Source: an uncultured Solirubrobacteraceae bacterium (lineage in GTDB: Bacteria; Actinomycetota; Thermoleophilia; Solirubrobacterales; Solirubrobacteraceae). From it: a stretch of DNA of 64,000 bases. This document shows positions 3,425 to 32,081 of the stretch, piece after piece (positions within the stretch are counted from its first letter, which is position 1; each line of letters begins with the position of its first letter). The stretch is from positions 137,791-201,790 of the forward strand of contig CAVRZB010000008.1 in assembly GCA_963725515.1 (NCBI GenBank). Reading direction: 5' to 3'. The notes below the pieces were generated by a model. The model did no database searches. It saw only the letters and a program-made list of their open reading frames with translations, and was not told where the DNA came from. The position numbers and the translations under genes were made by a program.

Positions 3425-4471
3425 TCAGCTCGCGTCCGCGCCGCCGCGGCGCCGCAGGCCGCGGCCGAGATGTGCCAGCCCGGCGAGCGGCGGACCGAAG
3501 CGCGCGCAGCCGATCAGGAACCCAACTCCGTAGCTCAGGTGCATCGTCGAGAAGACGAGCGGCAGCGCTGCGGCGTCCGCGCCGGCGCCCTCGCCCGCCG
3601 CGCGCGCACTCGCGGTGAGCAGGGTGACCGCGTACGCCGCGACCCCGGCGCGCGCTGTGCGGCGCAGCCCCCGGGACGGCGCCAGCACCGCGGCGGCGGC
3701 GCTCAGTGCCAGCGCGGGCGGCAAGACCTGCGAGCGGCGCAGGCTCTCGGGATGGCGCCCTGCCGTCTTGACCCGGTAGGTCCCGTAGCGCAGGTACTGG
3801 CGCGCGAGCGCCCCCAGGGTGTCGCGCGGGATATAGCTGGCCGCCATCTCGGGCAGGCACACGATCCGGCCGCCTTCGGCCCTGATGCGGGCGGCGAGCT
3901 CCATGTCCTGGTCGTTGACGAACTCCTCGTCCCAGCCGCCGTGGCGCTCGAGGAGGGAGCGCCGCCAGATGCCTGTGAAGCCGGTGTCGATCTCGTGCTC
4001 GCGCTCGAGCTCCCGCCGGAACCCGGCTCCCCCGGTACCGAACGAGGTGCTCAGCGCGAGCGCGACGCGACGCGACCCGGGACTCGCGCCGACGGCGATC
4101 TGGGCCCCGCTCACCGAGGCCACACCGCCGCGCCGGAGGCGCTGCACGCCGGCCGCGAGATAGCGCGACGGGTACACGGTGTGGGCATCCATGCGGGCCA
4201 CGAACTCCCCACGCGCCTCGGCCAGCCCGATATTCAGGGCATGTGGAGTCCGGCGCTGTGGGTTCTCGAACACCCGCACGCGCGGGTCATCGGCGGCAAG
4301 CTCGGCGAGGATCTGCGGGGTGGCGTCGGTCGATCCACCGTCCATGAACAGGAACTCGAGCGTGCCGTCGAACTCCTGGGCGAGCATCGCGTGCGCAGCC
4401 TCGCGCAGGTGCCGCTCCTCGTTGAGGACCGGGATCAGCACGCTCACGTCGACTCGGGTCAAGGTCCCCAT
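3425..4471 (-). CDS. Glycosyltransferase family 2 (ExoA-like)
   Basis: VSVLIPVLNEE, MDGGSTDAT, ARMDAH (DxH), WDEEFVNDQDMELAARIR, C-terminal TMs. Confidence 0.88.
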   Translation of the reverse strand: MGTLTRVDVSVLIPVLNEERHLREAAHAMLAQEFDGTLEFLFMDGGSTDATPQILAELAADDPRVRVFENPQRRTPHALNIGLAEARGEFVARMDAHTVYPSRYLAAGVQRLRRGGVASVSGAQIAVGASPGSRRVALALSTSFGTGGAGFRRELEREHEIDTGFTGIWRRSLLERHGGWDEEFVNDQDMELAARIRAEGGRIVCLPEMAASYIPRDTLGALARQYLRYGTYRVKTAGRHPESLRRSQVLPPALALSAAAAVLAPSRGLRRTARAGVAAYAVTLLTASARAAGEGAGADAAALPLVFSTMHLSYGVGFLIGCARFGPPLAGLAHLGRGLRRRGGADAS

Positions 4472-6535
4472 CTACCTGATGTTCTGCTTCTTGAAGAGTG
4501 AGGCATTCGCGCCCTGCGTCAGGAGCTGATTGAACTTGACCGGGTCGATGGGCTGATGGCGCTTGATGAGCGTCCGGGCCTGGCCGATCAGCGGGTCGTC
4601 GACGTCGAGCTTCGCCGCTCGGTCGAGCTCGCTGAGCGCGAGCGTGTAGTGGCCGCTCCCCGCGTCGAGCAGGGCGAGCTGGAGCCAGGAATACCAGTCC
4701 TGCTCCTTGCCCAGCGCGCGCACGAACGCGGCCCGGGCGCGCGTCGAGTCGCCGAGCCCCTCGGCGGCGGCGCCCTCGGTGATCGCCGGGTCGGCGCTGA
4801 GCGGATCGAGTGAGGTTGCCCGCGAGAGGTCATGGTACGCCCCACTCGGTCGCTGCCCGTAGGTCTTGAGTGCGCGGTTGACGTAGCGGTCGGCTATGTA
4901 CGGGCCGTACATCCCGTAAGCCGCCCCGGCCAGCCCGAGGGCCAGCAGCATCGCACCGGCGAACGCCAGTCCGCCTCCGCGCCAGCGGGAGGCCCGCGGC
5001 GCGGCCGCGACCGCACCGTCGCCCGGCGGGGGCTCCGGGTCGCGCATCTCGATCGCCGCCAAGGCCATCGAGAACGCCGGCGCTGCCAGCGCCGGGAACT
5101 CGTCGAGCCAGTCCAGCGACGCGTGAACGAGGAAGTAGGTGGCGACCATGAACGCGGCCGTGGCGCACGCGCGCCCAAGGCCTCCGAGTCTTCGGGCGGT
5201 GAGCGCGAGGCCGGCCGTTAGGGCGAGGACGACGGTGGCGAACAGCGCGAAGCCGACGATCCCGGTCTCGCTGAGCGTCCGCAGGGTGATGTCGTGCACG
5301 TACTGGGAATGCTTGGCGAACCGCTTCAGACCGTCATATCGGCGGCCGAAATCGGCCGCCCCGACGCCGAGCACGGGGGCACCGGAGAACAGGTGCAGCG
5401 CGACCCGGATGTAGTCGAAGCGCTCCTCCGGCGTGACGGAGAAGATGCGACTCGGCCCGGTGCTGGCGTCGACCTTGCCGCTGTGGTAGATCTTGTTGGC
5501 CAGCCGGCTGATCTGCGGCGCGGCGGCGACCGAGGCGCCGGCCACCACCACCACGGCGAACATGGCCAGCGCGATCCGGCCGCTGCGCCGGTTGAGTGCG
5601 CGCCGGGCCTCCGCGAGCGGCCGGGGGAGCGGCACCCGGTCCTCGACCAATGCGATCACGAGCCCGAGAGCAAACGCCACCAGGCTCGTGATGAGCATCG
5701 TGGTGGCCGCCCGGGAGAGCAGCGGGCCGACCACCTTGCCGGCGTTGATGGCGTCGTCTACCTTGACCGTGCGCGAGAGCGAGAAGGCGAGGCCACCGCC
5801 GAGCACGGCGTAGCGCACGAGCAGCCGCAAGCGACCCGGCGTGATGAGGACGGCGATCACCGCGGTCACGGTCAAGCCGACCAGGCCGCCGCGGCTCTGC
5901 GGCAGCAGGGCGAACTCGCACAGGAACACCGAGATCGCCAGCCCCAGCGCCCTGAGCGGCGGCCACAGCTCGCTCCGCGTGGAGAGAATCAGCGCTGGCC
6001 AGAGGCCCATCACGGCGATCGCGGCCGTCGCATTCGGGTAATCGAGCGGCGTCGCGTAGCGCAGCTGGACGAAGAACGGGTCGAGGCTGTGGGCTGAGGT
6101 GGCCTGGAGGAGACCGATCGCGCAGAACGCGGCCACCCCCACGGACCAGGAGGCGAGCAGCAGGGTGACCGCGCGCGGCGTCCATGGCGTCACGGAGAAG
6201 ATCCAGGCGATCACCAGGTAGAGCAGCAGCTTGTCCGCCGACACGAGCGCGGCGCCCTTGGATCCCGACCAGATGATCGAGAGGTAGTTGAGCGCGGTCA
6301 GCGCGGCGAAGGCCAGTAGGGCGACGCGCGCCGCCCGCTGGCGCGGAAGCCATTGCCGGTGCCAGAGCAGCGTGACCAGGAGGAGCGCCACCGCGCCGAA
6401 GGCACTCGGGTACCACAGGTCCTCGAAGTAGCCGCCGCTCTCGCCGATCCAGACCATCCACAGCACCGCGAGCGCGGCGGCGGGTAGAAAGGGCGCGAGC
6501 TGGACGGTGCGGATCTTCGCCGCGGCTCCGGTCAC
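4472..6535 (-). CDS. O-antigen ligase/Wzy_C family membrane protein with C-terminal TPR-like region
   Basis: Many TMs, YPNA, LPQSRGG, PVLGVGAADF...HDITLRTLSETGIVG. GTG 6535 overlaps the upstream TGA (GTGA). Confidence 0.8.
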   Translation of the reverse strand: MTGAAAKIRTVQLAPFLPAAALAVLWMVWIGESGGYFEDLWYPSAFGAVALLLVTLLWHRQWLPRQRAARVALLAFAALTALNYLSIIWSGSKGAALVSADKLLLYLVIAWIFSVTPWTPRAVTLLLASWSVGVAAFCAIGLLQATSAHSLDPFFVQLRYATPLDYPNATAAIAVMGLWPALILSTRSELWPPLRALGLAISVFLCEFALLPQSRGGLVGLTVTAVIAVLITPGRLRLLVRYAVLGGGLAFSLSRTVKVDDAINAGKVVGPLLSRAATTMLITSLVAFALGLVIALVEDRVPLPRPLAEARRALNRRSGRIALAMFAVVVVAGASVAAAPQISRLANKIYHSGKVDASTGPSRIFSVTPEERFDYIRVALHLFSGAPVLGVGAADFGRRYDGLKRFAKHSQYVHDITLRTLSETGIVGFALFATVVLALTAGLALTARRLGGLGRACATAAFMVATYFLVHASLDWLDEFPALAAPAFSMALAAIEMRDPEPPPGDGAVAAAPRASRWRGGGLAFAGAMLLALGLAGAAYGMYGPYIADRYVNRALKTYGQRPSGAYHDLSRATSLDPLSADPAITEGAAAEGLGDSTRARAAFVRALGKEQDWYSWLQLALLDAGSGHYTLALSELDRAAKLDVDDPLIGQARTLIKRHQPIDPVKFNQLLTQGANASLFKKQNIR

Positions 6536-21502: not shown

Positions 21503-23713
21503 TCAGCGCTTGGAGATCGGGGCCAGGTCGGCCACCAGCTTGCGCTCCGAGCGGTCGCGACTGAAGCGGATGACGACGATCCCGCCGGGCTCGACGCCGG
21601 TCACGACGCCCTCGCCGAAGGACGGATGCGTGACATCGTCGCCCAGCCGATAGGCGATCGGCGCGTCCGCCTCGCGGGTGAACGGTGTGTTCTCGTTCGC
21701 GGAGGAGTCAGACCACGAGGTGAGACGGGCGCGGAAGCCACCCAGGCTGCGCCGTGGCTGCTCCTCATGATCGGTCAGCGCGGCGGGTATCTCGCCGATG
21801 AAGCGGCTCGCGGCGCCATAGGTGCGCGCCCCGAACACGTTGCGCGTGCGGGCGCTGGTCAGATAGAGGTCACGCTCAGTCCGCGTGATGCCGACATAGG
21901 CCAGGCGCCGCTCCTCCTCGAGCCCGCCCTCGTCGAGCGCCCGCGAGTGTGGGAAGACCCCCTCCTCCAGCCCGATCATGAAGACGATCGGGTACTCCAG
22001 CCCCTTGGCGTTGTGGAGGGTCATGAGGGTGACCAGCCCCGAGTCGTCGCTGCGGTCATCGGCATCCGAGACGAGCGCTACCTGCTGCAGAAACTCGGCC
22101 AGCGAGGGCTCCTCGGAGTTGCTCGCGTCGTACTCGGCGGCCACGTTGACCAGCTCCTCTAGGTTCTCGAGCCGGCCCTGGGCCTCGATCGTGCGCTCCG
22201 CCTCGAGCGCCTCCAGATAGCCCGTCTCGCGCAGCATCTCCTGCATCAGCTCGGCGATCGGGGTGCGGCTCTGCGCCCGCTCACGGAGCACCTGCATGGT
22301 GCCCATGAAGCGTCGCAGCGCCTTCACCGCGGGGGTCCCGAGGCCGGGCACCTGCTCGGGCTCCGCCGCCGCCTCCCAGACCGTCGTGCCCATCGTGTTG
22401 GCGAAGGCGAGCACGCGTGAGACCGAGGTCGAGCCGATCCCCCGCCGCGGCGCGTTGACGATCCGCGTGAAGGCCCCCACGTCCTGGGGGTTCACGAGCG
22501 AGGTCAAGTAGGCGATCGCGTCCTTGATCTCGGCGCGCTCGTAGAACTTCGTGCCCCCGATCACCTGGTAGGCGATCTCCGCCCTGACCAGCGTGTCCTC
22601 GAGTACCCGTGACTGGGCGTTTGTCCGGTAGAAGACGGCGATCTCGGCCCGCGAGACGCCTTCGTCGACGAGCCGCTGGATCTCGCCCGTCACGAAACGG
22701 GCCTCCGCGTGCTCGTCATCGAGCTCGCGAACCTTGATCGGGTCGCCCTGGCCGAGCTCGGTCCACAACGACTTCGGCTTCTGCCCCCGGTTGTTGCGGA
22801 TCACGGCGTTGGCGGCGTCGAGGATCGTCTGGGTCGAGCGATAGTTCTGCTCGAGCTTGATCACCTTCGCGTCGGGAAACGTGTCCTCGAACTCGAGGAT
22901 GTTGCTGATGTCGGCGCCACGGAAGCCGTAGATCGACTGCGCATCATCGCCGACCACCATCAGGTTGCGGTGCTCGCCCGCGAGCAGCTGGAGCCAGCGG
23001 TACTGGGCGTGGTTGGTGTCCTGGTACTCGTCCACCATCACGTGGCGGAAACCGGCGGCGTAGCGTTCCCGGACCTCGGGGAACAGCTCGAGCACATTGA
23101 CGGCGCGCACCAGCAGGTCGTCGAAGTCCATTGCGTTCATGCGGTGAAGCTCGCGCTCGTAGACGCGATACACGTCGGCGACCGTCTGCTCGAAGAACGA
23201 GCCCACCATCTGGCCATAGGCGTCGGCGTCGCGGAGCTTGTTCTTGGCGTCGGAGATCTGGGCGTGGATCGCTCCCGGTGTGAAGCGCTTGGGATCGACC
23301 CCGAGCTCGTCGAGCGAGCGCTTGATCAGCCGCCGGGCGTCGGCCTGGTCGTAGATCGTGAACTGGCGCGTATAGCCGAGCCGGTGGGCATCGGCCCGCA
23401 GGATTCGGGCGCAGGCGGCATGGAAGGTCATCACCCACATGGCGCGGACCTGACGGCCGACCAGCACGCCGGCGCGGTCGCGCATCTCCCCGGCCGCCTT
23501 GTTGGTGAACGTGATGGCCAGGATCTCGTCCGGGCGCGCGACGTCCGTGGCCACCAGGTAGGCGATCCGGTGGGTCAGCACGCGCGTCTTGCCCGAACCG
23601 GCCCCGGCCAGGATCAGCAGCGGTCCCTCGCCGTGCGTGACGGCCTTGCGCTGAGGATCGTTGAGCCCCGAGAGCAGGGCATCCAGATCGTCGCTGAGCT
23701 CGGCCATGGACAA
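21503..23713 (-). CDS. pcrA: ATP-dependent DNA helicase PcrA/UvrD
   Basis: AGAGSGKT, VDEYQDTN, VGDDAQSIYGFRGA, LEQNYRS, HNAKGLEY, EERRLAYVGITR. Confidence 0.96.
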   Translation of the reverse strand: MSMAELSDDLDALLSGLNDPQRKAVTHGEGPLLILAGAGSGKTRVLTHRIAYLVATDVARPDEILAITFTNKAAGEMRDRAGVLVGRQVRAMWVMTFHAACARILRADAHRLGYTRQFTIYDQADARRLIKRSLDELGVDPKRFTPGAIHAQISDAKNKLRDADAYGQMVGSFFEQTVADVYRVYERELHRMNAMDFDDLLVRAVNVLELFPEVRERYAAGFRHVMVDEYQDTNHAQYRWLQLLAGEHRNLMVVGDDAQSIYGFRGADISNILEFEDTFPDAKVIKLEQNYRSTQTILDAANAVIRNNRGQKPKSLWTELGQGDPIKVRELDDEHAEARFVTGEIQRLVDEGVSRAEIAVFYRTNAQSRVLEDTLVRAEIAYQVIGGTKFYERAEIKDAIAYLTSLVNPQDVGAFTRIVNAPRRGIGSTSVSRVLAFANTMGTTVWEAAAEPEQVPGLGTPAVKALRRFMGTMQVLRERAQSRTPIAELMQEMLRETGYLEALEAERTIEAQGRLENLEELVNVAAEYDASNSEEPSLAEFLQQVALVSDADDRSDDSGLVTLMTLHNAKGLEYPIVFMIGLEEGVFPHSRALDEGGLEEERRLAYVGITRTERDLYLTSARTRNVFGARTYGAASRFIGEIPAALTDHEEQPRRSLGGFRARLTSWSDSSANENTPFTREADAPIAYRLGDDVTHPSFGEGVVTGVEPGGIVVIRFSRDRSERKLVADLAPISKR

Positions 23714-23771: not shown

Positions 23772-24695
23772 GTGACCGACCTCCTCGCCGACCTGCGAAG
23801 CGCATGCCGCCAAGTGGCCGCGATGTCTCAGCATGTGAGCATTGTCTCGGCTGCGATCCCGCGCTACGCGAGGAGTCTCCCGGCGGCGGTCGCGGCGACC
23901 CCAGACGCCTCGACCGCCCTGCTCGACGCCGACCACGAGACGCTCGCGGCGTTCTGGCTTACGCTCGACGCGATCAACTTCGGATCGGGATGGTTTCCGA
24001 CGCTCCGCAAGCGCGACGGCCGATCGGGGTACTTCACGATCGCCGGCGGGGTCCGCGAGCGGTTCGCGACGCGCGGCGCCTGGAGCGCCACGGAACTCCG
24101 CCGGATCGCCCCGGGCGAGATCGCCGGAACCCTCGGCCAGGACCCCGGTCATGAGCTGATGGGTCTGTTCGCGCGCTCTCTGAACGATCTCGGCGCGCAC
24201 GTGGCGGGTGAGCACCGCGGCCGCTTCCTCGGCGTCGTGCACGACGCCGACGGCTCGGCGGCCCGGCTGGTCTCGGACCTGGCCGCGTGGCGGAGTTTCG
24301 AGGACGTCTCGCTCTACGGTGAGCTCGAGGTTCCCTTCCTCAAGCGCGCCCAGATCGCCGCGGCGGACCTGAGCCGGGCCTGTCTCGGGGACTTCGATGA
24401 TCTCGGGCGGCTGACGATGTTCGCGGACAACCTGGTCCCCCACGTTCTGCGCCTCGATGGCGTGCTCGCTTATGAGCCGGCGTTGCGCGCGCGCATCGAG
24501 CGCGGCGAGTTGATCGACCACGGCTCACACGAGGAAATCGAGATCCGGGCCTGCGCGCTGCACGCCGTCGAGCTCATCGTGGCCGAGCTGGGCGATGTCG
24601 ACGCCGCGCAGATCGATCAGATCCTTTGGCATCGCGGCCAGCGCGCTCGCTACAAGGCGGCGCCGAGACATCGTTCGCGCTGCACGGCGTATTGA
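23772..24695 (+). CDS. Queuosine-nucleotide N-glycosylase/salvage protein (DUF2419/Qng1-like)
   Basis: LDAINFGSGW, FLKRAQI, FADNLVPHVL, EIEIRA, which I recall as DUF2419/QNG1 motifs. Confidence 0.8.
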   Translation: MTDLLADLRSACRQVAAMSQHVSIVSAAIPRYARSLPAAVAATPDASTALLDADHETLAAFWLTLDAINFGSGWFPTLRKRDGRSGYFTIAGGVRERFATRGAWSATELRRIAPGEIAGTLGQDPGHELMGLFARSLNDLGAHVAGEHRGRFLGVVHDADGSAARLVSDLAAWRSFEDVSLYGELEVPFLKRAQIAAADLSRACLGDFDDLGRLTMFADNLVPHVLRLDGVLAYEPALRARIERGELIDHGSHEEIEIRACALHAVELIVAELGDVDAAQIDQILWHRGQRARYKAAPRHRSRCTAY

Positions 24696-24732
24696 CGGTA
24701 CCCCGGCGCCTGCGCGATCCTTGCGCCAGCCC

Positions 24733-25119
24733 GTGTCCGGCTACGAGCGTGTCGGCGTCACTGCCGCCCCTCCGGCGGTTCTGGCGGCGCTGCGCGAGGT
24801 GCTGGTCGAACGCGGCCTGATCGAGTACGTGGTTGTCGATCACGGTCACGACATGGCCGCAGCGGGCGCACCGGGGTTCGTAGCCTGGACGGTCATTTTC
24901 GGCAACCCGGCCGCCGGCGCCAAGCTGCTCGCCCGCGACCTCGCCGCCGCGGCCGACATCCCTCTGCGCCTGGCCGTTGTGCAGGCCGCCTACGGCACCG
25001 AAATCGTGCTGCGGGACATGCGGACGCTGCTCGACGCCGAGCTGACGGAGATAGCCGACGCCTTCACCGGGGTGCTGCGGTCGATCGCGGCGCAGGCTCG
25101 TGTACGGGCCACGGGCTGA
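24733..25119 (+). CDS. DUF302 domain protein
   Basis: VDHGHDM...IFGNP..GAKLL....AADIPLRLAV. Start chosen to avoid overlap with the upstream gene. Confidence 0.7.
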   Translation: MSGYERVGVTAAPPAVLAALREVLVERGLIEYVVVDHGHDMAAAGAPGFVAWTVIFGNPAAGAKLLARDLAAAADIPLRLAVVQAAYGTEIVLRDMRTLLDAELTEIADAFTGVLRSIAAQARVRATG

Positions 25120-25148: not shown

Positions 25149-26468
25149 CTACTTCGCGGCGGCCTTCACGCGCGCCGAGGCCAGCGCCTTGGCGCCCTTC
25201 TCCCCCACGAGCAGCTCGGCGCGTGCCGTGCGGCTGAGGACGGGATCCAGGGCCGGGAAGCTCCCCGCGGTGGCCCGCGCCGGATCGAGCGCGACGACCG
25301 TCGTCTCCCCGCCGAGCGGCTTACTCGCCGTGGCGATCACCGTCAGCGAGCCGCCGTCCACGATGTTGCGGGCGGCCGCAAGCGCCTTGCGCGCCGCCGC
25401 GGGCGGCAGACCATCGAGGGTGTCGATCAGCACGACCGCATCGGCGCCCCGCGCGGCGATCCGGCGGGCCTGCTCGATCACGCGGTCCACGGCCAGCGCC
25501 TGAGCATCGGCCGAAGCGGCAAAGCTGACTCCTCCGGCGAGCTCGCCCGACCCGCGTGCCCAGTCGGAGATCTCCTCCGGCCGCACGCCGGCCAACACGA
25601 CCGACAGCTCGAGCGCCTCGACCCCGGACAGCGCCGACGCGAGTGCGCGCACGATCTCGGTCTTGCCCGTCCAGGCCGGCCCGGCGATCGTGACACGCGA
25701 GCCCTTGCCGAACGGCGCCAGGCCGATGATCGCGTCGATCGTGGCGTTCCCGGTCTCGAGCCCGAGCCCTTCGCTCGGGAAGGTCGCGGGCAGGTCCTCG
25801 AAACGCGCACCCTCGGAGACCTCGTCGGCCGGCCGGCCGTTGATCGAGTCGATCCGGATCATCGACGGGAAGCGCTCCGAGCGACGCGGGGCGCGACGCG
25901 GGCCGGCGACCTTGTCGCCGGATACGAGCTCGCAGCGCTTGACCTGCGCCGCCGAGATGTAGACGTCGTCGTCCGAGGTCTCGGGCGGAGCCACGCGCAC
26001 GAACCCGGAGCCGTTGGGCAGCAGCTCGACGACGCCGTCGACGACCTGCTCCTCCTGGTCTCGGGGTGGGCGCTCGTCGGCTTTGGCCGCCCGCTCGGCC
26101 GGCTTGGCACCCCGGCCCGAGGACCTGGGCGCGCGCACGGGCCGCTCCTCGTCGCCGTCGGCGCGGCGCGTGCGACGCCTCGGCTTGGCCTCGGTCTCCG
26201 GCTCGGTCTCGGCCTCCGCGCGCTCGTCGTCGGACCCGGCGGTCCGCCCGCGACCACCACGGCGCCCACGCCGGCGGCGTGTTGAGCTGTCGTCCTCGCT
26301 GTCCTCGGAATCGTTCTCGGTTGCGGCGGCGGGCTGCTCGCCGAGGATCGCGTCGATCAGATCGGCGCGCCGCAGCCGGCGGTAGCCGTCGATCGACAGC
26401 TCCGAAGCAATGGTGTGCAGGTCCGCGAGTGGGCTCTCGTCGAGCGCGGACCGGTCGAGTACTGACAT
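25149..26468 (-). CDS. Rho-like protein: Rho N-terminal and RNA-binding domains plus degenerate ATPase domain
   Basis: LHTIASEL...LIDAIL, GVVELLPNGSGFVR, DDVYIS, APFGKGSR...GKT, AARNIVDGGSLTVIATA. Confidence 0.85.
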   Translation of the reverse strand: MSVLDRSALDESPLADLHTIASELSIDGYRRLRRADLIDAILGEQPAAATENDSEDSEDDSSTRRRRGRRGGRGRTAGSDDERAEAETEPETEAKPRRRTRRADGDEERPVRAPRSSGRGAKPAERAAKADERPPRDQEEQVVDGVVELLPNGSGFVRVAPPETSDDDVYISAAQVKRCELVSGDKVAGPRRAPRRSERFPSMIRIDSINGRPADEVSEGARFEDLPATFPSEGLGLETGNATIDAIIGLAPFGKGSRVTIAGPAWTGKTEIVRALASALSGVEALELSVVLAGVRPEEISDWARGSGELAGGVSFAASADAQALAVDRVIEQARRIAARGADAVVLIDTLDGLPPAAARKALAAARNIVDGGSLTVIATASKPLGGETTVVALDPARATAGSFPALDPVLSRTARAELLVGEKGAKALASARVKAAAK

Positions 26469-26554
26469 GTGGGCCTCCTGAGGCGTTGATCGGTTGGCTC
26501 CGGTCGCGTTGAGCCAGCGACCGGCGATGCGCTTAGCCTAGCGGGAGGCGCGGA

Positions 26555-27742
26555 TCAGCGCGCGAAGAGTGCGAAGAAGTCGCGGTCGTCCGGGGTCAGA
26601 TAACGCGTGTTGGGGCGGATCATGTCGGGCAGCAGATTCGCTGGATGCCGCGCGAAGTGGTGCGCGTAGGTGATGAAGCTCGTCCAGTACTCGTTGATGT
26701 CGAGCTCGAGCGCCCGCACCGCGCCGGCCCGCAGGAGACTGTCGGCCAGGGTGCGGACGGTCTGCTCGGGAGCGGCGACGTAGATCAGGTTGCCGCGCCG
26801 GTCGACGCCCAGGCCCGAGCGCCAGACGCGAATCGCGTTGCCGACCGTGGCGCCCCATTCCGGACCGTCGCTGAGATTCGGATTGAGCCTGCCGTGGTTG
26901 ATGATCAGGGGCAGGTTCTGCCGCGCTACCAGGACGTCCGGGCCTGCGGTCGGCCCGCCGTTCCAGGAGATCACGTCGACGTGCCCGTCGCGATATTGCA
27001 CGAGCGTGCCGATTCCCTTGAGCATCGGGGTCCACGTCCGCCCCTGGTAGGCGTAGCCCTCGCCGGCGTCGTGGAGCTTGAAGCCGCCGTTGAAGACGGC
27101 GACCAGGCCGCGGCGAAGCGAGGGCGGAATCTCCTCCGGGCCGCGCACGATCGGCACAGGCGGCTCGAGCGCACCCGGGAAGTAGCGGAACCTCGTCGCA
27201 CCCTTGTCGATCCACGCCACGCCGGTGACGATCCGCGGGTAGGCCGCCTCACTGCGGAAGGTGGTGATGAGCACCGGCGGCCGCGGGCCGGCGTTGGCCA
27301 GCGCCGAGCGCCACACGCCCTCGAAGGGCAACGCCGGGTGAATCACCGGGGCTATGCGGTGGGGCCGGTAGTAAGTGATGCGCGCGTGGCGGGCGGGCCG
27401 CGTGGTCTGGGCGAATCCAACCTGCGGCAGCGCGTGCAGCGCCGGACCGCCCTTGGCCGGCGCGGTCAGCGAGTAGTACCAGTCCTCAACCTGCGAGACC
27501 AGACCCGATGCCCCGTGGTCACGCAGCCACTCGACGCTGCGGATCCCGAGGCTGCTGTTGGAGGAACTGGTCAGCACCCGGACGTAGGACACCGCGACAG
27601 GGACGAGCGCGATCGTCACCGCGATCAGCAGAATTCGGCGAAGTCGCCGCCAGAGGGACGGCGACCGGGGAGACGGTCTCGCCCTCGTCGGCTGCGGGCC
27701 TGCGGGCGTGTGTCTAGAGGGTGGCGGCGCGAGGGTCGACAT
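26555..27742 (-). CDS. Membrane-anchored phosphodiester glycosidase (NAGPA-like) family protein
   Basis: N-terminal TM, AVFNGGF, RQNLPLII, RSGLG, LELDIN. Confidence 0.6.
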   Translation of the reverse strand: MSTLAPPPSRHTPAGPQPTRARPSPRSPSLWRRLRRILLIAVTIALVPVAVSYVRVLTSSSNSSLGIRSVEWLRDHGASGLVSQVEDWYYSLTAPAKGGPALHALPQVGFAQTTRPARHARITYYRPHRIAPVIHPALPFEGVWRSALANAGPRPPVLITTFRSEAAYPRIVTGVAWIDKGATRFRYFPGALEPPVPIVRGPEEIPPSLRRGLVAVFNGGFKLHDAGEGYAYQGRTWTPMLKGIGTLVQYRDGHVDVISWNGGPTAGPDVLVARQNLPLIINHGRLNPNLSDGPEWGATVGNAIRVWRSGLGVDRRGNLIYVAAPEQTVRTLADSLLRAGAVRALELDINEYWTSFITYAHHFARHPANLLPDMIRPNTRYLTPDDRDFFALFAR

Positions 27743-28114: not shown

Positions 28115-29242
28115 CTAGGGCCGCGCGATCAGCCGCGCGATGCCCGGCGAGTTGCCGGCCTCGGCCAGGCGGCGGTGTGAGCCCGCGCGGCGCTTGAGAT
28201 ACAGGTCGAGGAACGCCGTGGTGACCCGCTCCACGATCCCGAGCTGGGGCTGCTGGCCGGAATAGGGCGGTAGGTGGCCGGCGCCGAGTAGGTCGAGCAG
28301 ATACTTGGGCCGCGGCGCGATATCGAAGAAGGCGCTGGTGAAGCTCGGCGGGTTGATCGTGTCCGCCGTGCCCTGCGTGGCCAGCAGCGGAGGGCTTCCG
28401 GCGGGGAAGGTGAAGCCGCCCACACCCGGGATCTCGGCGCCGGAGAGGATCACGGCGGCGCGCACGCGGTGGTCGAGGAAGAACCGGTCGTAGGCCACGG
28501 CGAGTGCCGTCTCGCCGCCGTCGGACTGCCCGGAGACGGCTACGAGACCCGGGTTCAGCGCCCCGGACAGCGCGCCGGGACGTCCATTGGCGCGCAGCAG
28601 CTGACTGATCAGGAAGCTCATATCGGCGGGTTGGTTGACCAGGTCGGCCTCGTTCGGACCGCCGGGCGCATTGGCGTTCTCCAGCGGGAACACCGGCGCT
28701 GCGACGACGTACCCCGCGCGGGCCCAGCTCTGGAGCAGGCGCGCATACGGGGCTGGAGTGACCGTGAACCCGTGTCCGAAGATGAGCAGCGGGAACGGTC
28801 CGCCGACCCGTGCCAGCGGCGCGTTGCGCCGATCGGTTGCGCTCAGCGGTCCGGCGGCGGGGTAGCGCACGTAGGTCACCAGCGTGCGCGGCACGCGCCT
28901 CCCGTCGGGCAGCCTGATCGTTCGGCTCCGATCGGCGAGCCGCAGGACGCGCAGCCCGACGGCAAAACGGGTCGGCACGCTCGCCTTGGCCGGGGGCGGG
29001 TGCGGCCTCGGAGCCGATGTCGTGCCGCTGCTCATCGTCGAGCTGAACGTGACATTCGAGCCGGTGCGGAGCTGAGCCGGTCGGGCGGGCACCGGTCCCG
29101 CGGCCCGGCGCCGGTGGGCCGGAGCGAGGGCGAGCGCGACTCCAACTCCGATCAGCGAGACGAGGGCGACGGCCAGCGCGAAGCGCAGGTAGCGCCGCGG
29201 CGGACGCCTGCGGCGCTCCAATTCAGGCTCTGGTCTGGGCAT
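28115..29242 (-). CDS. Membrane-anchored/secreted alpha/beta hydrolase
   Basis: N-terminal TM, IFGHGF, GYVVAAP, VSGQSDGG (GxSxG), QGTADTI, AGHLPP. Confidence 0.78.
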   Translation of the reverse strand: MPRPEPELERRRRPPRRYLRFALAVALVSLIGVGVALALAPAHRRRAAGPVPARPAQLRTGSNVTFSSTMSSGTTSAPRPHPPPAKASVPTRFAVGLRVLRLADRSRTIRLPDGRRVPRTLVTYVRYPAAGPLSATDRRNAPLARVGGPFPLLIFGHGFTVTPAPYARLLQSWARAGYVVAAPVFPLENANAPGGPNEADLVNQPADMSFLISQLLRANGRPGALSGALNPGLVAVSGQSDGGETALAVAYDRFFLDHRVRAAVILSGAEIPGVGGFTFPAGSPPLLATQGTADTINPPSFTSAFFDIAPRPKYLLDLLGAGHLPPYSGQQPQLGIVERVTTAFLDLYLKRRAGSHRRLAEAGNSPGIARLIARP

Positions 29243-29328
29243 CGGTTCTCACGCCTCTCCTGCTGACATTCTCGCGCGCCGTCGCCTGGCGGCGACCGCG
29301 TGGCCAGGTGCCTAGCATCGGAGAGGGA

Positions 29329-30003
29329 ATGCAACGGCTCGAGGTCAGACCTGTCCCGGTGCGGCAGACCAGGGCGCTGCGGGAGGCGGTTCTGCGTCCG
29401 CACGAGTCGGTCGAGCAGGTGGCGTCGCACGAGCCCGACGGGGCGTTCGCGGTTGGCGCCTTCGAGGCCCGCGAGCTCGTGTCGGTGGGACTCGTGGGAC
29501 CCGACGGCGAACCCGGGTCCTGGCGTGTCCGAGGCATGGCCACCGCGCCGCACGCGCGCGGCCGCGGTGCGGGGACGGCGGTGCTGACGGCGCTGTGCGC
29601 GTACGCGGGGGCGCGCGGCGGCCACCGGGTGTGGTGCAACGCGCGGCTGCGCGCTCGCTCGCTGTACGAACGCGCCGGCTTCGCGCCGGCCTCGGACATC
29701 TTCCAGCTGCCGGACATCGGTCCCCATGTGGTCATGGAGCGCACGGCCGTGCCCGGGCGCAACCTGCCTGGTCAGTCTCCCGGGGGAGCGACTGAGCCGC
29801 TCGTCGTCCAGCCGACCGGTGGCTCCGGCGACTCCGCCTCCCCCCAGCTCGGCAGCGGCGGCGGTGTCCACTGCGGCTCGTCATCTGCTCCCGCTCCGAG
29901 CAGACCGGTGGCCACCACGAGCGCTCCACTCGCCACGGCCAGCCACGCACCCCAGGCGGGGTGCAGCAGCGAGCTCGGTCCGGGCGGGACGAACGTCCGG
30001 TAG
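29329..30003 (+). CDS. GNAT family N-acetyltransferase (C-terminal tail overlaps opposite gene)
   Basis: LREAVLRP, RVRGMAT...RGRGAG, WCNAR...LYERAGF, GPHVVM. GGAGAGGG SD. Confidence 0.8.
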   Translation: MQRLEVRPVPVRQTRALREAVLRPHESVEQVASHEPDGAFAVGAFEARELVSVGLVGPDGEPGSWRVRGMATAPHARGRGAGTAVLTALCAYAGARGGHRVWCNARLRARSLYERAGFAPASDIFQLPDIGPHVVMERTAVPGRNLPGQSPGGATEPLVVQPTGGSGDSASPQLGSGGGVHCGSSSAPAPSRPVATTSAPLATASHAPQAGCSSELGPGGTNVR

Positions 30004-30420: not shown

Positions 30421-31341
30421 TCAGCGTCCGGAGGGGCCGGCCCCCTGGTCCCAGCGCAGGTCGTCCACGAGCCGCAGCCCGGAATCGATCTCCCTGTCTG
30501 ACTCCAGCGCCTCCAGCACGGTCAGGAACTCGGCCGTCTCCGTGACGTCATGGACACGCAGGATGTGCACGCCGCAGCGGACCCCGTGGGCGACGGCGGC
30601 CAGCGTGCCGGACAGCCGCTCGCGGGGCGGGCGGCCGGTGAGCGCCCCGACGAAGTCCTTGCGCGAGACGGCCAGCAGGAGCGGCCGTCCGAAGGCATGC
30701 AGGCGGTCCAGGTCACGCAGCGACTCGATCGTCTGCGCCGGCGTCTTGGAGAAGTCCGGGCCGGGATCGAGGATCAGCTGTTCGAACGCAACACCGTGCT
30801 GCTGCGCAAACTCGATCCGTTGCGCCAGGAAGGCCTCCACGTCCGCGGCCGTGCGACCGTCGAGCGCGGGGTCGAGCAGCTTCTGCTTCGGGGCGGCGCG
30901 GGTGTGCATCAGCACGAGCGCGGCGCCCGTCTCGGCGCAGACGTCGGCGAGCTCGGGATCTCGCAGCCCACTCACGTCGTTGACGAGCGCTGCGCCCACG
31001 GCAATCGCCGCCCGCGCGACGGCGGGCTTGTAGGTGTCGACGGAGACAGTGGCACCGAGCTCTCCGCTCACACGCTCGATCAGCGGCACGACTCGCTCGA
31101 TCTCCTCCTGCGGCGTGACCGCGGGGCGGTTCGTGACGCCGGACTCGCCGCCAATGTCGATGATCGCGGCGCCGGCCTCGAGCAGTCCGGCGGCCCGCGC
31201 GGTGCGGGCCTCGAGCGTCTGCTCGAGACCGCCGTCGGAGAACGAATCGGGGGTTGCGTTGACGATGCCCATCAGCAGCGGGCGGCCGCCAAGCTCCAGC
31301 GCGCCCCGCGCTGTGAACAACGTCCGCCGGGGGACGTTCAT
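30421..31341 (-). CDS. folP: Dihydropteroate synthase
   Basis: MGIVNATPDSFSDG, IDIGGES, SVDTYKP, NDVSG, LDPG..F.K, SRKDF, ILRVHDV. ATGA overlap with the upstream gene. Confidence 0.95.
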   Translation of the reverse strand: MNVPRRTLFTARGALELGGRPLLMGIVNATPDSFSDGGLEQTLEARTARAAGLLEAGAAIIDIGGESGVTNRPAVTPQEEIERVVPLIERVSGELGATVSVDTYKPAVARAAIAVGAALVNDVSGLRDPELADVCAETGAALVLMHTRAAPKQKLLDPALDGRTAADVEAFLAQRIEFAQQHGVAFEQLILDPGPDFSKTPAQTIESLRDLDRLHAFGRPLLLAVSRKDFVGALTGRPPRERLSGTLAAVAHGVRCGVHILRVHDVTETAEFLTVLEALESDREIDSGLRLVDDLRWDQGAGPSGR

Positions 31342-32081
31342 CGCCGAGCGTCGGCGGCCAGCGCGGACCGGAAGCGGCTCCAGAGGGCCGGCTTGGGCCC
31401 CTCGGGGCGATCGCCTTCGCGGTCGAGGCCCTCTCCTCGGGCGTCCCACGGGCGCTGATCCCTGAGCATCGGCTCGAGCCCGTCGGCGTCGGGAATCGCG
31501 TCCACCCGCCGGGCCCGGTAACAGACCGACGCCTCGAGCATCGCGGCGTGCATGCGGCGGCAGGGCGGGCAATCACCGAGGTGATCGCTCAGCCACTCGT
31601 GTTCCTCGGGCGCGACCGGCTCGCCGTCCTGCCGCCGGGCGAGCGACCGCAGAGACCGGTCGCCCTCTGCGCAGGGCACACGCTCCGACAGATCCGAGCC
31701 GCGCAGCTCGGCGCGCAGGCGCAGGCGGGCGCGGGCCAACAGCGGACCGACCGCCGCGACGTCGATCCGGGCCACCTCGGCCAGATCTGCATACGACAGG
31801 CCGATCGCTTCGCGCAGAGCGAGCGCCTCCCGCTGACGCTCGGGAAGGCGCGCGGTCGCCACCGCGAGCTCGCGGGCCACGGCGCCGTCGAGCCCGCCGT
31901 CCTCGCCCGGTGCATGAGGCAGGGCGACGTCGAGCGCGATGTGCGCACGGCAGGCGCGGCTGGCCGCCGCAAGCCGCTGCAGGCGGTCGGGCGGCGCGGT
32001 GTCCATCGCGGTGCGGGCGGCCTCCTGCGCAGCCCCCGTGGAGCGAAGAACCCGCCGGCAGAACTCGAGTGTCTCCTCCAT
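31338..32081 (-). CDS. ECF sigma region-4 protein fused to a zf-HC2 (ZAS) zinc finger; sigma region 2 degenerate
   Basis: LPERQREALALREAIGLSYADLAEV...LARARLRLR, then C...HLGDCPPCR (HxxxCxxC). Confidence 0.7.
   Translation of the reverse strand: MEETLEFCRRVLRSTGAAQEAARTAMDTAPPDRLQRLAAASRACRAHIALDVALPHAPGEDGGLDGAVARELAVATARLPERQREALALREAIGLSYADLAEVARIDVAAVGPLLARARLRLRAELRGSDLSERVPCAEGDRSLRSLARRQDGEPVAPEEHEWLSDHLGDCPPCRRMHAAMLEASVCYRARRVDAIPDADGLEPMLRDQRPWDARGEGLDREGDRPEGPKPALWSRFRSALAADARR

Follow-up and report, generated by a model that had tools for sequence, protein, structure and literature searches.

Background

Textbooks present Rho as a ring-shaped translocase of RNA. Its canonical form, exemplified by the E. 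coli protein (PDB 1PV4/3ICE; TIGR00767/NF006886), is the nearest structural neighbour and the evolutionary ortholog of a Rho-like protein encoded in the window analysed here, a stretch of 64,000 nucleotides from an uncultured Solirubrobacteraceae bacterium (contig CAVRZB010000008.1). The two proteins share the order of domains (Rho_N, OB-fold primary binding site (PBS) for RNA, RecA-like), the PBS residues, the P-loop, the Walker B Asp, the Arg valve, the AARN motif, the GGSLT strand and the FPAID motif, but the window protein lacks the catalytic Glu, the Q-loop and the R-loop, is substituted at the Arg-finger position, and is without approximately 29 residues at the C-terminus. With a probability of roughly three in four, it is best explained as a non-translocating derivative of Rho that binds RNA and ATP.

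Other described systems resemble it in part. The actinobacterial "Type 2" Rho of Mycobacterium tuberculosis (PDB 7OQH) also carries, between its Rho_N and OB domains, a disordered insertion rich in Arg, Asp, Glu and Gly (residues 49-373 of the window protein align by phmmer to residues 164-483 of 7oqh), but keeps all of the motor motifs that the window protein has lost, and is a working, though weak, ATP-dependent motor. The alpha subunit of F1-ATPase (PF00006 superfamily) likewise combines a RecA-like fold and an intact P-loop with the absence of a catalytic carboxylate, and the nucleotide bound in its ring is a structural ligand; it belongs, however, to a hetero-hexamer with a catalytic beta subunit, whereas the window protein has no catalytic partner, and the likeness is an analogy of mechanism only. 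The short-form Rho of NF041509 (paralog_Rho2) is another Rho-derived variant of altered architecture, but shows the opposite pattern, with its N-terminal part absent and its motor kept (126.5 versus 628 bits).

In canonical Rho, the Q- and R-loops constitute a secondary binding site (SBS) for RNA in the central channel, and E211, R212 and R366 coordinate hydrolysis (PMC11347177). Two cultured Solirubrobacterales appear in passing in Moreira et al. (2024) as "Rho-like", without functional Rho, the "Rho-like" class consisting of proteins with Rho_N and RNA-binding domains but without a detectable Rho ATPase domain (PMC11347177). As judged with Pfam models rather than the authors' custom hidden Markov model (HMM), the window protein has this same pattern: Rho_N and Rho_RNA_bind are found, and ATP-synt_ab scores 22.7 bits against a threshold of 29.5. 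By order and by pattern of domain detection, the proteins of Moreira et al. and the window protein almost certainly belong to one family. The main text of that paper does not describe a retained RecA-like domain, a nucleotide pocket, selection or an order-wide distribution (PMC11347177). No other paper on Solirubrobacterales Rho-like proteins was found.

Domain structure of the Rho-like protein

An earlier note, made from the letters of the window, had described the Rho-like open reading frame (ORF; Table 1) as intact and apparently expressed, with a Shine-Dalgarno sequence, and as keeping the N-terminal helix bundle, an Arg/Asp/Glu-rich insertion and the OB-fold motifs. This description stands: the ORF begins with ATG and encodes 439 residues, AGGAGG lies 5 nt upstream, the gene is under selection (see below), Pfam matches both N-terminal domains, the residues of the OB pocket are invariant, and all of the motifs that had been quoted (GSGFVRV, DDDVYISAA, GKT at residues 268-270, LAGVRPEE and DTLDGLPPAAARK) are in place.

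A monomer model was computed with AlphaFold2 from an alignment of 69 members of the family (A1, built from a protein database and the basis of all counts out of 69 below). In this model the Rho_N helices occupy residues 6-10, 15-23 and 34-43, and the predicted local distance difference test score (pLDDT) is approximately 90 over residues 240-439, 75-83 over the OB fold and below 50 over the insertion. The 94 residues of the insertion include 21 Arg, 15 Glu, 14 Ala and 10 Asp, and evolve rapidly within the family (mean identity 32%; ratio of nonsynonymous to synonymous substitution rates (dN/dS, omega) of 0.60 by the pairwise Nei-Gojobori method (NG86)). Within this otherwise variable segment, residues R65-R75 of an RGG-type box are invariant or at least 90% conserved among the 69 sequences. 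In the relative L046 the insertion (approximately 1900-2250) contains some nine copies of a 15-nt tandem unit, GCGGCGTCGGACTTC, and in the relative L019 (approximately 4140-4620) a tandem unit of 18 nt resembling GGGGACCGCGACCGTGGC; the insertion therefore evolves via repeat expansion.

In the OB fold, GSGFVRV is located at residues 153-159 and DDDVYISAA at residues 166-174. The equivalents of E. coli F64, R66, D78, Y80, E108 and R109 are invariant (69/69), and two substitutions in the pocket, F62 to Ser and Y110 to Phe, are fixed in all 69 sequences.

The whole protein scores far below the curated cutoffs for Rho: 163.5 bits with TIGR00767 (equivalog cutoff 509.45 bits) and 172.1 bits with NF006886 (cutoff 315 bits), the equivalog match spanning only positions 4-267 of approximately 415 in the model. 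The sub-threshold ATP-synt_ab match covers residues 244-349. Among PDB chains, phmmer aligns the protein to the Rho of Thermotoga, E. coli, Thermus and M. tuberculosis (E = 2.3e-37 for Rho 3l0o), and all of the top 50 Foldseek matches to the modelled structure in PDB are Rho chains, with E values down to 5e-24. The predicted secondary structure differs from that of Rho by the absence of the helix-loop after Walker B and of the loop-helix after the GGSLTVIATA strand. Because pLDDT is high and the Foldseek matches are exclusively to Rho, the C-terminal domain is, by this model, a RecA-like domain that has been trimmed but still folds, not debris.

Motor motifs kept and lost

E. coli K-12 Rho, taken from its database record, was aligned to the window protein together with 29 orthologs of the same family, 11 orthologs of sister families and the canonical Rho of the class Thermoleophilia. 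This alignment and those to PDB Rho chains bear out the loss of the catalytic Glu, the Q-loop and the R-loop and the survival of the Walker A GKT that the earlier note had reported, and they make it very probable that RNA translocation is impossible, as it had also supposed. Two further changes emerge: a substitution at the Arg-finger position, with an Arg one residue later, and a C-terminal tail approximately 29 residues shorter than that of E. coli Rho.

Most of the nucleotide pocket is retained. In the P-loop, G268 and K269 (E. coli G183 and K184) are present in 69/69 sequences and T/S270 (T/S185) likewise; the Walker B Asp (D265 equivalent), the Arg valve R212 and the equivalents of E214 and E215 are also kept in 69/69, and the adenine-stacking Phe (F355 equivalent) in 68/69. 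The AARN motif and the GGSLT strand are retained. D210, in contrast, is replaced by G294 (Gly in 69/69), and the catalytic Glu E211 by V295 (Val, Ile or Ala in 69/69). At the Arg-finger position, R366, the window protein has Ala and the family Ile, Leu or Met, with Arg as the next residue in 68/69.

Both RNA-contacting pore loops are deleted. From the Walker B Asp (D265) to AARN (A303) there are 15 residues versus 37 in E. coli (-22), DTLDGLPPAAARK occupying residues 349-361, and all 69 sequences have gaps at the Q-loop columns K283 and T286. From the GGSLTVIATA strand (A319) to FPALD (F355) there are 22 residues versus 35 in E. coli (-13); two alignments place the R-loop gap slightly differently, and neither has a Lys at the position of K326. 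The phmmer alignments to PDB Rho show the same features, the stretch from Walker B to AARN being shortened and the EEFKGTGN stretch absent.

Copy number and distribution of Rho

A six-frame HMM search of the genome from which the window derives (18 contigs, 92.6% complete) found the Rho-like gene (143.6 bits) and two weak matches that were confirmed as atpD and atpA, and no second or canonical rho. The earlier note had taken the gene for a paralog of a canonical rho elsewhere in the genome and possibly a Rho-poisoning subunit of a hetero-hexamer; canonical rho is absent from this genome and from all of the sampled genomes of the genus and order, so that the Rho-like gene is the only rho and no canonical Rho exists to be poisoned. 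In 40 relatives searched with the Rho HMM (24 of the same genus and 16 of the same order), no match exceeded the Rho cutoff, and each genome has a single Rho-like gene. Weaker secondary matches to the Rho model in a few relatives are the flagellar ATPase FliI. A motor encoded as a detached, separate gene was considered and rejected, since the secondary TIGR00767 matches are FliI in the relatives and AtpD and AtpA in the window's own genome. The ORF of the F1 ATP synthase alpha subunit in the latter (contig C10, L003:1048-2877) has 609 residues versus 503 positions in the profile and is matched in two stretches, which suggests an insertion of approximately 100 residues or an extended ORF call.

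A survey of 121 Thermoleophilia genomes, each at least 85% complete, includes 21 Solirubrobacterales, of which 21/21 have the Rho OB domain and 0/21 have canonical Rho; altogether, canonical Rho is absent from all of the approximately 60 Solirubrobacterales genomes sampled. Bit scores of the Rho-like proteins are 125-160 in the window's family, approximately 180 in family f3, 200-266 in family f4 and 307 in the ortholog of family f2 (G038, from the 40 relatives). Elsewhere in the class, canonical Rho is found in families f8, f10 and f11 (615-667 bits), and neither Rho nor any relic of its OB domain was found in families f7, f9 and f12 (approximately 44 high-completeness genomes, G041-G087). 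Thermoleophilia thus holds three states: canonical, motor-less and Rho-free lineages. Homologs of the Rho-like protein in metagenomes number in the thousands. Annotation pipelines differ in the name they give the protein ("transcription termination factor Rho" at JGI, "Rho termination factor N-terminal domain-containing protein" at NCBI).

Descent, mosaic decay and selection

In a maximum-likelihood (ML) tree, the Rho-like proteins of the order form a single clade (Shimodaira-Hasegawa approximate likelihood-ratio test (SH-aLRT) 98; stem 0.89), sister to canonical Thermoleophilia Rho, within which each family is monophyletic. On the strength of this tree and of copy number, the Rho-like gene is read as the sole, vertically inherited rho ortholog of Solirubrobacterales. 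Comparison of gene positions is uninformative for orthology: none of 16 proteins encoded near the gene in the window was found within 9 kb on either side of canonical rho in three class-level genomes.

The motor motifs have been lost in different combinations. The change of DE to G[VA] and both loop deletions are common to the window's family and f3, the latter being also without the P-loop Lys (K to A, GAGAT). Family f4 keeps DERPEE but has a P-loop with K replaced by R and a Q-loop shortened by 18 residues; in f2 the length of the Q-loop is unchanged, but neither K184 nor E211 remains. A complete motor is kept in no sampled member of Solirubrobacterales. Because different motifs are lost in sister families, the motor would have ceased to be selected at the base of the order, and this mosaic is the pattern expected if translocation was no longer selected from the stem of the order on and the motifs then decayed independently.

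What remains is under selection. Fitted per domain on trees with the ML GY+F3X4+G4 codon model, omega in the Rho-like genes is approximately 0.074 for the N-terminal domain, 0.040 for the OB fold and 0.071 for the RecA-like domain, versus 0.032, 0.006 and 0.010, respectively, in a comparison set of 14 canonical Rho genes of the class. Within the family, NG86 values are 0.15, 0.15 and 0.25 for the same three domains. Constraint is approximately 7-fold weaker than in canonical Rho, yet every folded domain, the former motor among them, is still under strong purifying selection. Dozens of alignment columns are invariant among the 69 sequences, which are approximately 60% identical overall, and full-length Rho-like ORFs are present in nearly all genomes of the order-level clade. 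Loss of the P-loop Lys in f3 and f4 goes with an NG86 omega of approximately 0.4 for the RecA-like domain, in a small sample; this is consistent with selection on the nucleotide pocket specifically in the window's family.

The gene is split into two or three frames in the relatives L025, L045 and L046. The split in L025 is likely an assembly error, because the shift lies in a homopolymer of seven G and UvrD is fragmented on the same contig; those in L045 and L046 may be true pseudogenes.

Proposed role

A rho ortholog would thus have been converted from an RNA translocase to a motor-less RNA-binding protein, in a form fixed across Solirubrobacterales. Because its core is well conserved, the RecA-like domain is expected to self-assemble still, probably as a Rho-like ring. 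Conservation of the PBS and the RGG box argues that binding of C-rich single-stranded RNA, via the OB heads together with the RGG box, is the selected activity. Because the P-loop, the Walker B Asp and the adenine-stacking Phe are conserved, ATP is predicted to serve the window's family as a bound structural or switch ligand that is hydrolysed little or not at all, in the manner of the non-catalytic alpha subunit of the homologous F1-ATPase. ATP turnover would not be coupled to threading of RNA, because the Q-loop, the R-loop, the catalytic Glu and a canonical Arg finger are missing, and pulling RNA through the central pore would be impossible. The most likely role is the "loading" half of Rho action, in which the protein would bind naked, untranslated nascent RNA and then serve as a passive brake, an RNA chaperone, an R-loop guard or an RNA-protein scaffold. 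A role as RNA chaperone or anti-terminator, both of which the earlier note had offered, may apply.

Several points weigh against this interpretation. The case for ATP binding, for RNA binding and for an oligomeric state is drawn from conserved residues. The Arg beside the Arg-finger position and the conserved RPEE may permit a residual, non-canonical ATPase activity. The window copy is more diverged than those of its relatives (terminal branch 0.56 versus a median of 0.28) and deviates at near-invariant sites, having W266 and S403 where the family has Arg and R413 where the family has Gly. The omega values are approximate, as the codon trees are long (total length 13-25), and at 92.6% completeness the absence of a second rho from the window's own genome rests partly on its consistent absence from relatives.

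Alternative explanations

One variant of the proposed role, unlikely as it stands but with a real share of the probability, is that the ring, bound to RNA polymerase (RNAP), NusG or NusA and to the nascent transcript, shuts down the elongation complex by allostery and without translocation, in a "stand-by" mode. NusG is present, selection has kept the PBS, the domain that forms the ring and the nucleotide pocket, and pre-termination complexes seen by cryo-electron microscopy contain open, catalytically inactive Rho prebound to RNAP (PMC12360218). What share of termination requires translocation, as opposed to allosteric action by RNAP-bound Rho, is still debated (PMC12360218). The published model, however, still relies on the SBS and on closure of the ring in its later stages, elements that the window protein lacks; moreover, this is a sub-case of the non-translocating, RNA- and ATP-binding protein preferred above and has no direct support of its own in the present data. 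That such a ring would terminate or silence transcription by acting on RNAP directly throughout the order is doubtful. If it did, the order would carry a natural separation-of-function mutant in which Rho action of the "stand-by" or allosteric kind, independent of a motor, suffices in vivo, and this would explain how transcripts end in a very GC-rich lineage in which canonical intrinsic terminators are not enriched: in the 20 kb around the gene, 5 were found versus 4.5 +/- 2.5 expected. The same count gives no signal for independence from Rho through enriched intrinsic terminators, and that idea was set aside.

It is improbable that the protein is still an ATP-driven terminator, with a very divergent motor that relies on non-canonical catalytic and RNA-contact residues. 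Such a motor would account for the conservation of the P-loop Lys and Thr, the Walker B Asp, the Arg valve, E214/E215, the adenine-stacking Phe and the Arg after the finger position; NusG, again, is present, a factor-dependent route may be needed where intrinsic terminators are not locally enriched, and the Rho of M. tuberculosis is a poor ATPase yet essential (PMC8828861, PMC5379054). The catalytic Glu, however, has become hydrophobic Val or Ile in 68 of the 69 family members and Ala in the remaining one, both RNA-contact loops of the pore have been deleted outright and not merely substituted, sister families keep the gene without the P-loop Lys, and a score of 163 bits stands against an equivalog cutoff of 509 bits.

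A neutrally decaying relic of a dispensable Rho, that is, a pseudogene in progress, is very improbable. The weakened constraint, the existence in the class of three families without any Rho, and the split ORFs in L025, L045 and L046 are what such decay would produce. Neutral decay is nevertheless rejected by dN/dS across orthologs, omega being far below 1 by either method (ML 0.04-0.07, NG86 0.15-0.25), by full-length ORFs that occur nearly order-wide and by the many invariant columns; the frameshift in L025, in its homopolymer and with UvrD also fragmented, points to the assembly. Least probable of all is that the protein is a paralog which joins a canonical Rho, encoded at another place in the genome, in mixed assemblies and poisons or regulates it: an intact RNA-binding head on a dead motor is indeed how a dominant-negative subunit should look, but canonical Rho is found neither in the window's own genome, nor in the 40 relatives, nor in the 21 high-completeness genomes of the order, and the gene tree follows taxonomy as that of a single-copy ortholog.

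Genomic neighbourhood

Gene order around the Rho-like gene is conserved in the family: a Big/PKD protein, folP, the Rho-like gene, (a Q-salvage gene) and UvrD/PcrA. Three genes that separate folP from the Rho-like gene in the window (Table 1) look like a local insertion, because folP is immediately upstream in most relatives. PcrA/UvrD is an RNAP-associated helicase, and in the relative L022 its gene is approximately 87 bp from the Rho-like gene on the same strand. This adjacency is suggestive, but may be plain synteny: in another genus of the family (L068), UvrD is not in the neighbourhood of the Rho-like gene, and an operon-type link to folP and UvrD was not adopted for this reason. In the window, a DUF302 ORF as listed (24595-25119) shares approximately 100 nt with the 3' end of the Q-salvage gene (23772-24695), and its Pfam match starts only at residue 99; the true start of the DUF302 gene is probably further downstream.

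Table 1. Features of the Rho-like gene and its neighbours (positions in the window unless a relative is named)
Feature	Position	Strand	Basis or remark
Rho-like ORF, complete, ATG start, 439 aa plus stop	25149..26468	-	ORF reading; TIGR00767 163.5 bits
Shine-Dalgarno AGGAGG, spacer to ATG 5 nt	26474..26479	-	Read from sequence
Rho_N helix bundle, residues 9-45	26334..26444	-	Pfam PF07498, E = 1.3e-8, above gathering score
Disordered Arg/Glu/Ala/Asp-rich insertion, residues 47-140	26049..26330	-	Composition; pLDDT <50
RGG-type box RRRRGRRGGRGR, residues 64-75, inside the insertion	26244..26279	-	69-sequence alignment
OB-fold primary RNA-binding domain, residues 144-214	25827..26039	-	Pfam PF07497 (Rho_RNA_bind), E = 6.3e-20, above gathering score
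Degenerate RecA-like (former ATPase) domain, residues 244-420	25209..25739	-	pLDDT ~90; Foldseek
Walker A P-loop GPAWTGKT, residues 263-270, retained	25659..25682	-	Alignment
LAGVRPEE, residues 292-299, site of catalytic Glu loss	25572..25595	-	Alignment
Walker B strand VVLID (D349) and Q-loop deletion site, residues 345-361	25386..25436	-	Alignment
R-loop deletion site SKPLGGETT, residues 382-390	25299..25325	-	Alignment; GGETT invariant in family
FPALD adenine-stacking motif and SRTARAELL, residues 404-420	25209..25259	-	Alignment
UvrD/PcrA-type helicase	21503-23713; L022:4001-7257		Downstream of Rho-like gene in genus
NAGPA-like phosphodiester glycosidase	26555-27742	-	Between folP and Rho-like gene
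Chlorophyllase or dienelactone-hydrolase-like protein	28115-29242	-	Between folP and Rho-like gene
GNAT acetyltransferase	29308-30003	+	Between folP and Rho-like gene
folP	30421-31572		Upstream of Rho-like gene

Implications

The Rho-like protein belongs to a known protein family, of which it is a variant kept by selection throughout the lineage: in the sole rho of an abundant soil order, the parts for hydrolysis and RNA pulling have been removed while the loading head and the nucleotide pocket are under purifying selection. This corrects the scoring of these species as simply lacking functional Rho. The canonical, motor-less and absent states within one class allow comparison of the ways in which bacteria come to do without Rho, and the motor-less state is a natural test case for functions of Rho that are independent of its motor. 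Because the stripped-down form has been kept by selection across the whole order, Rho appears, as judged from these comparisons of genes, to have a job in Solirubrobacterales that needs no motor.

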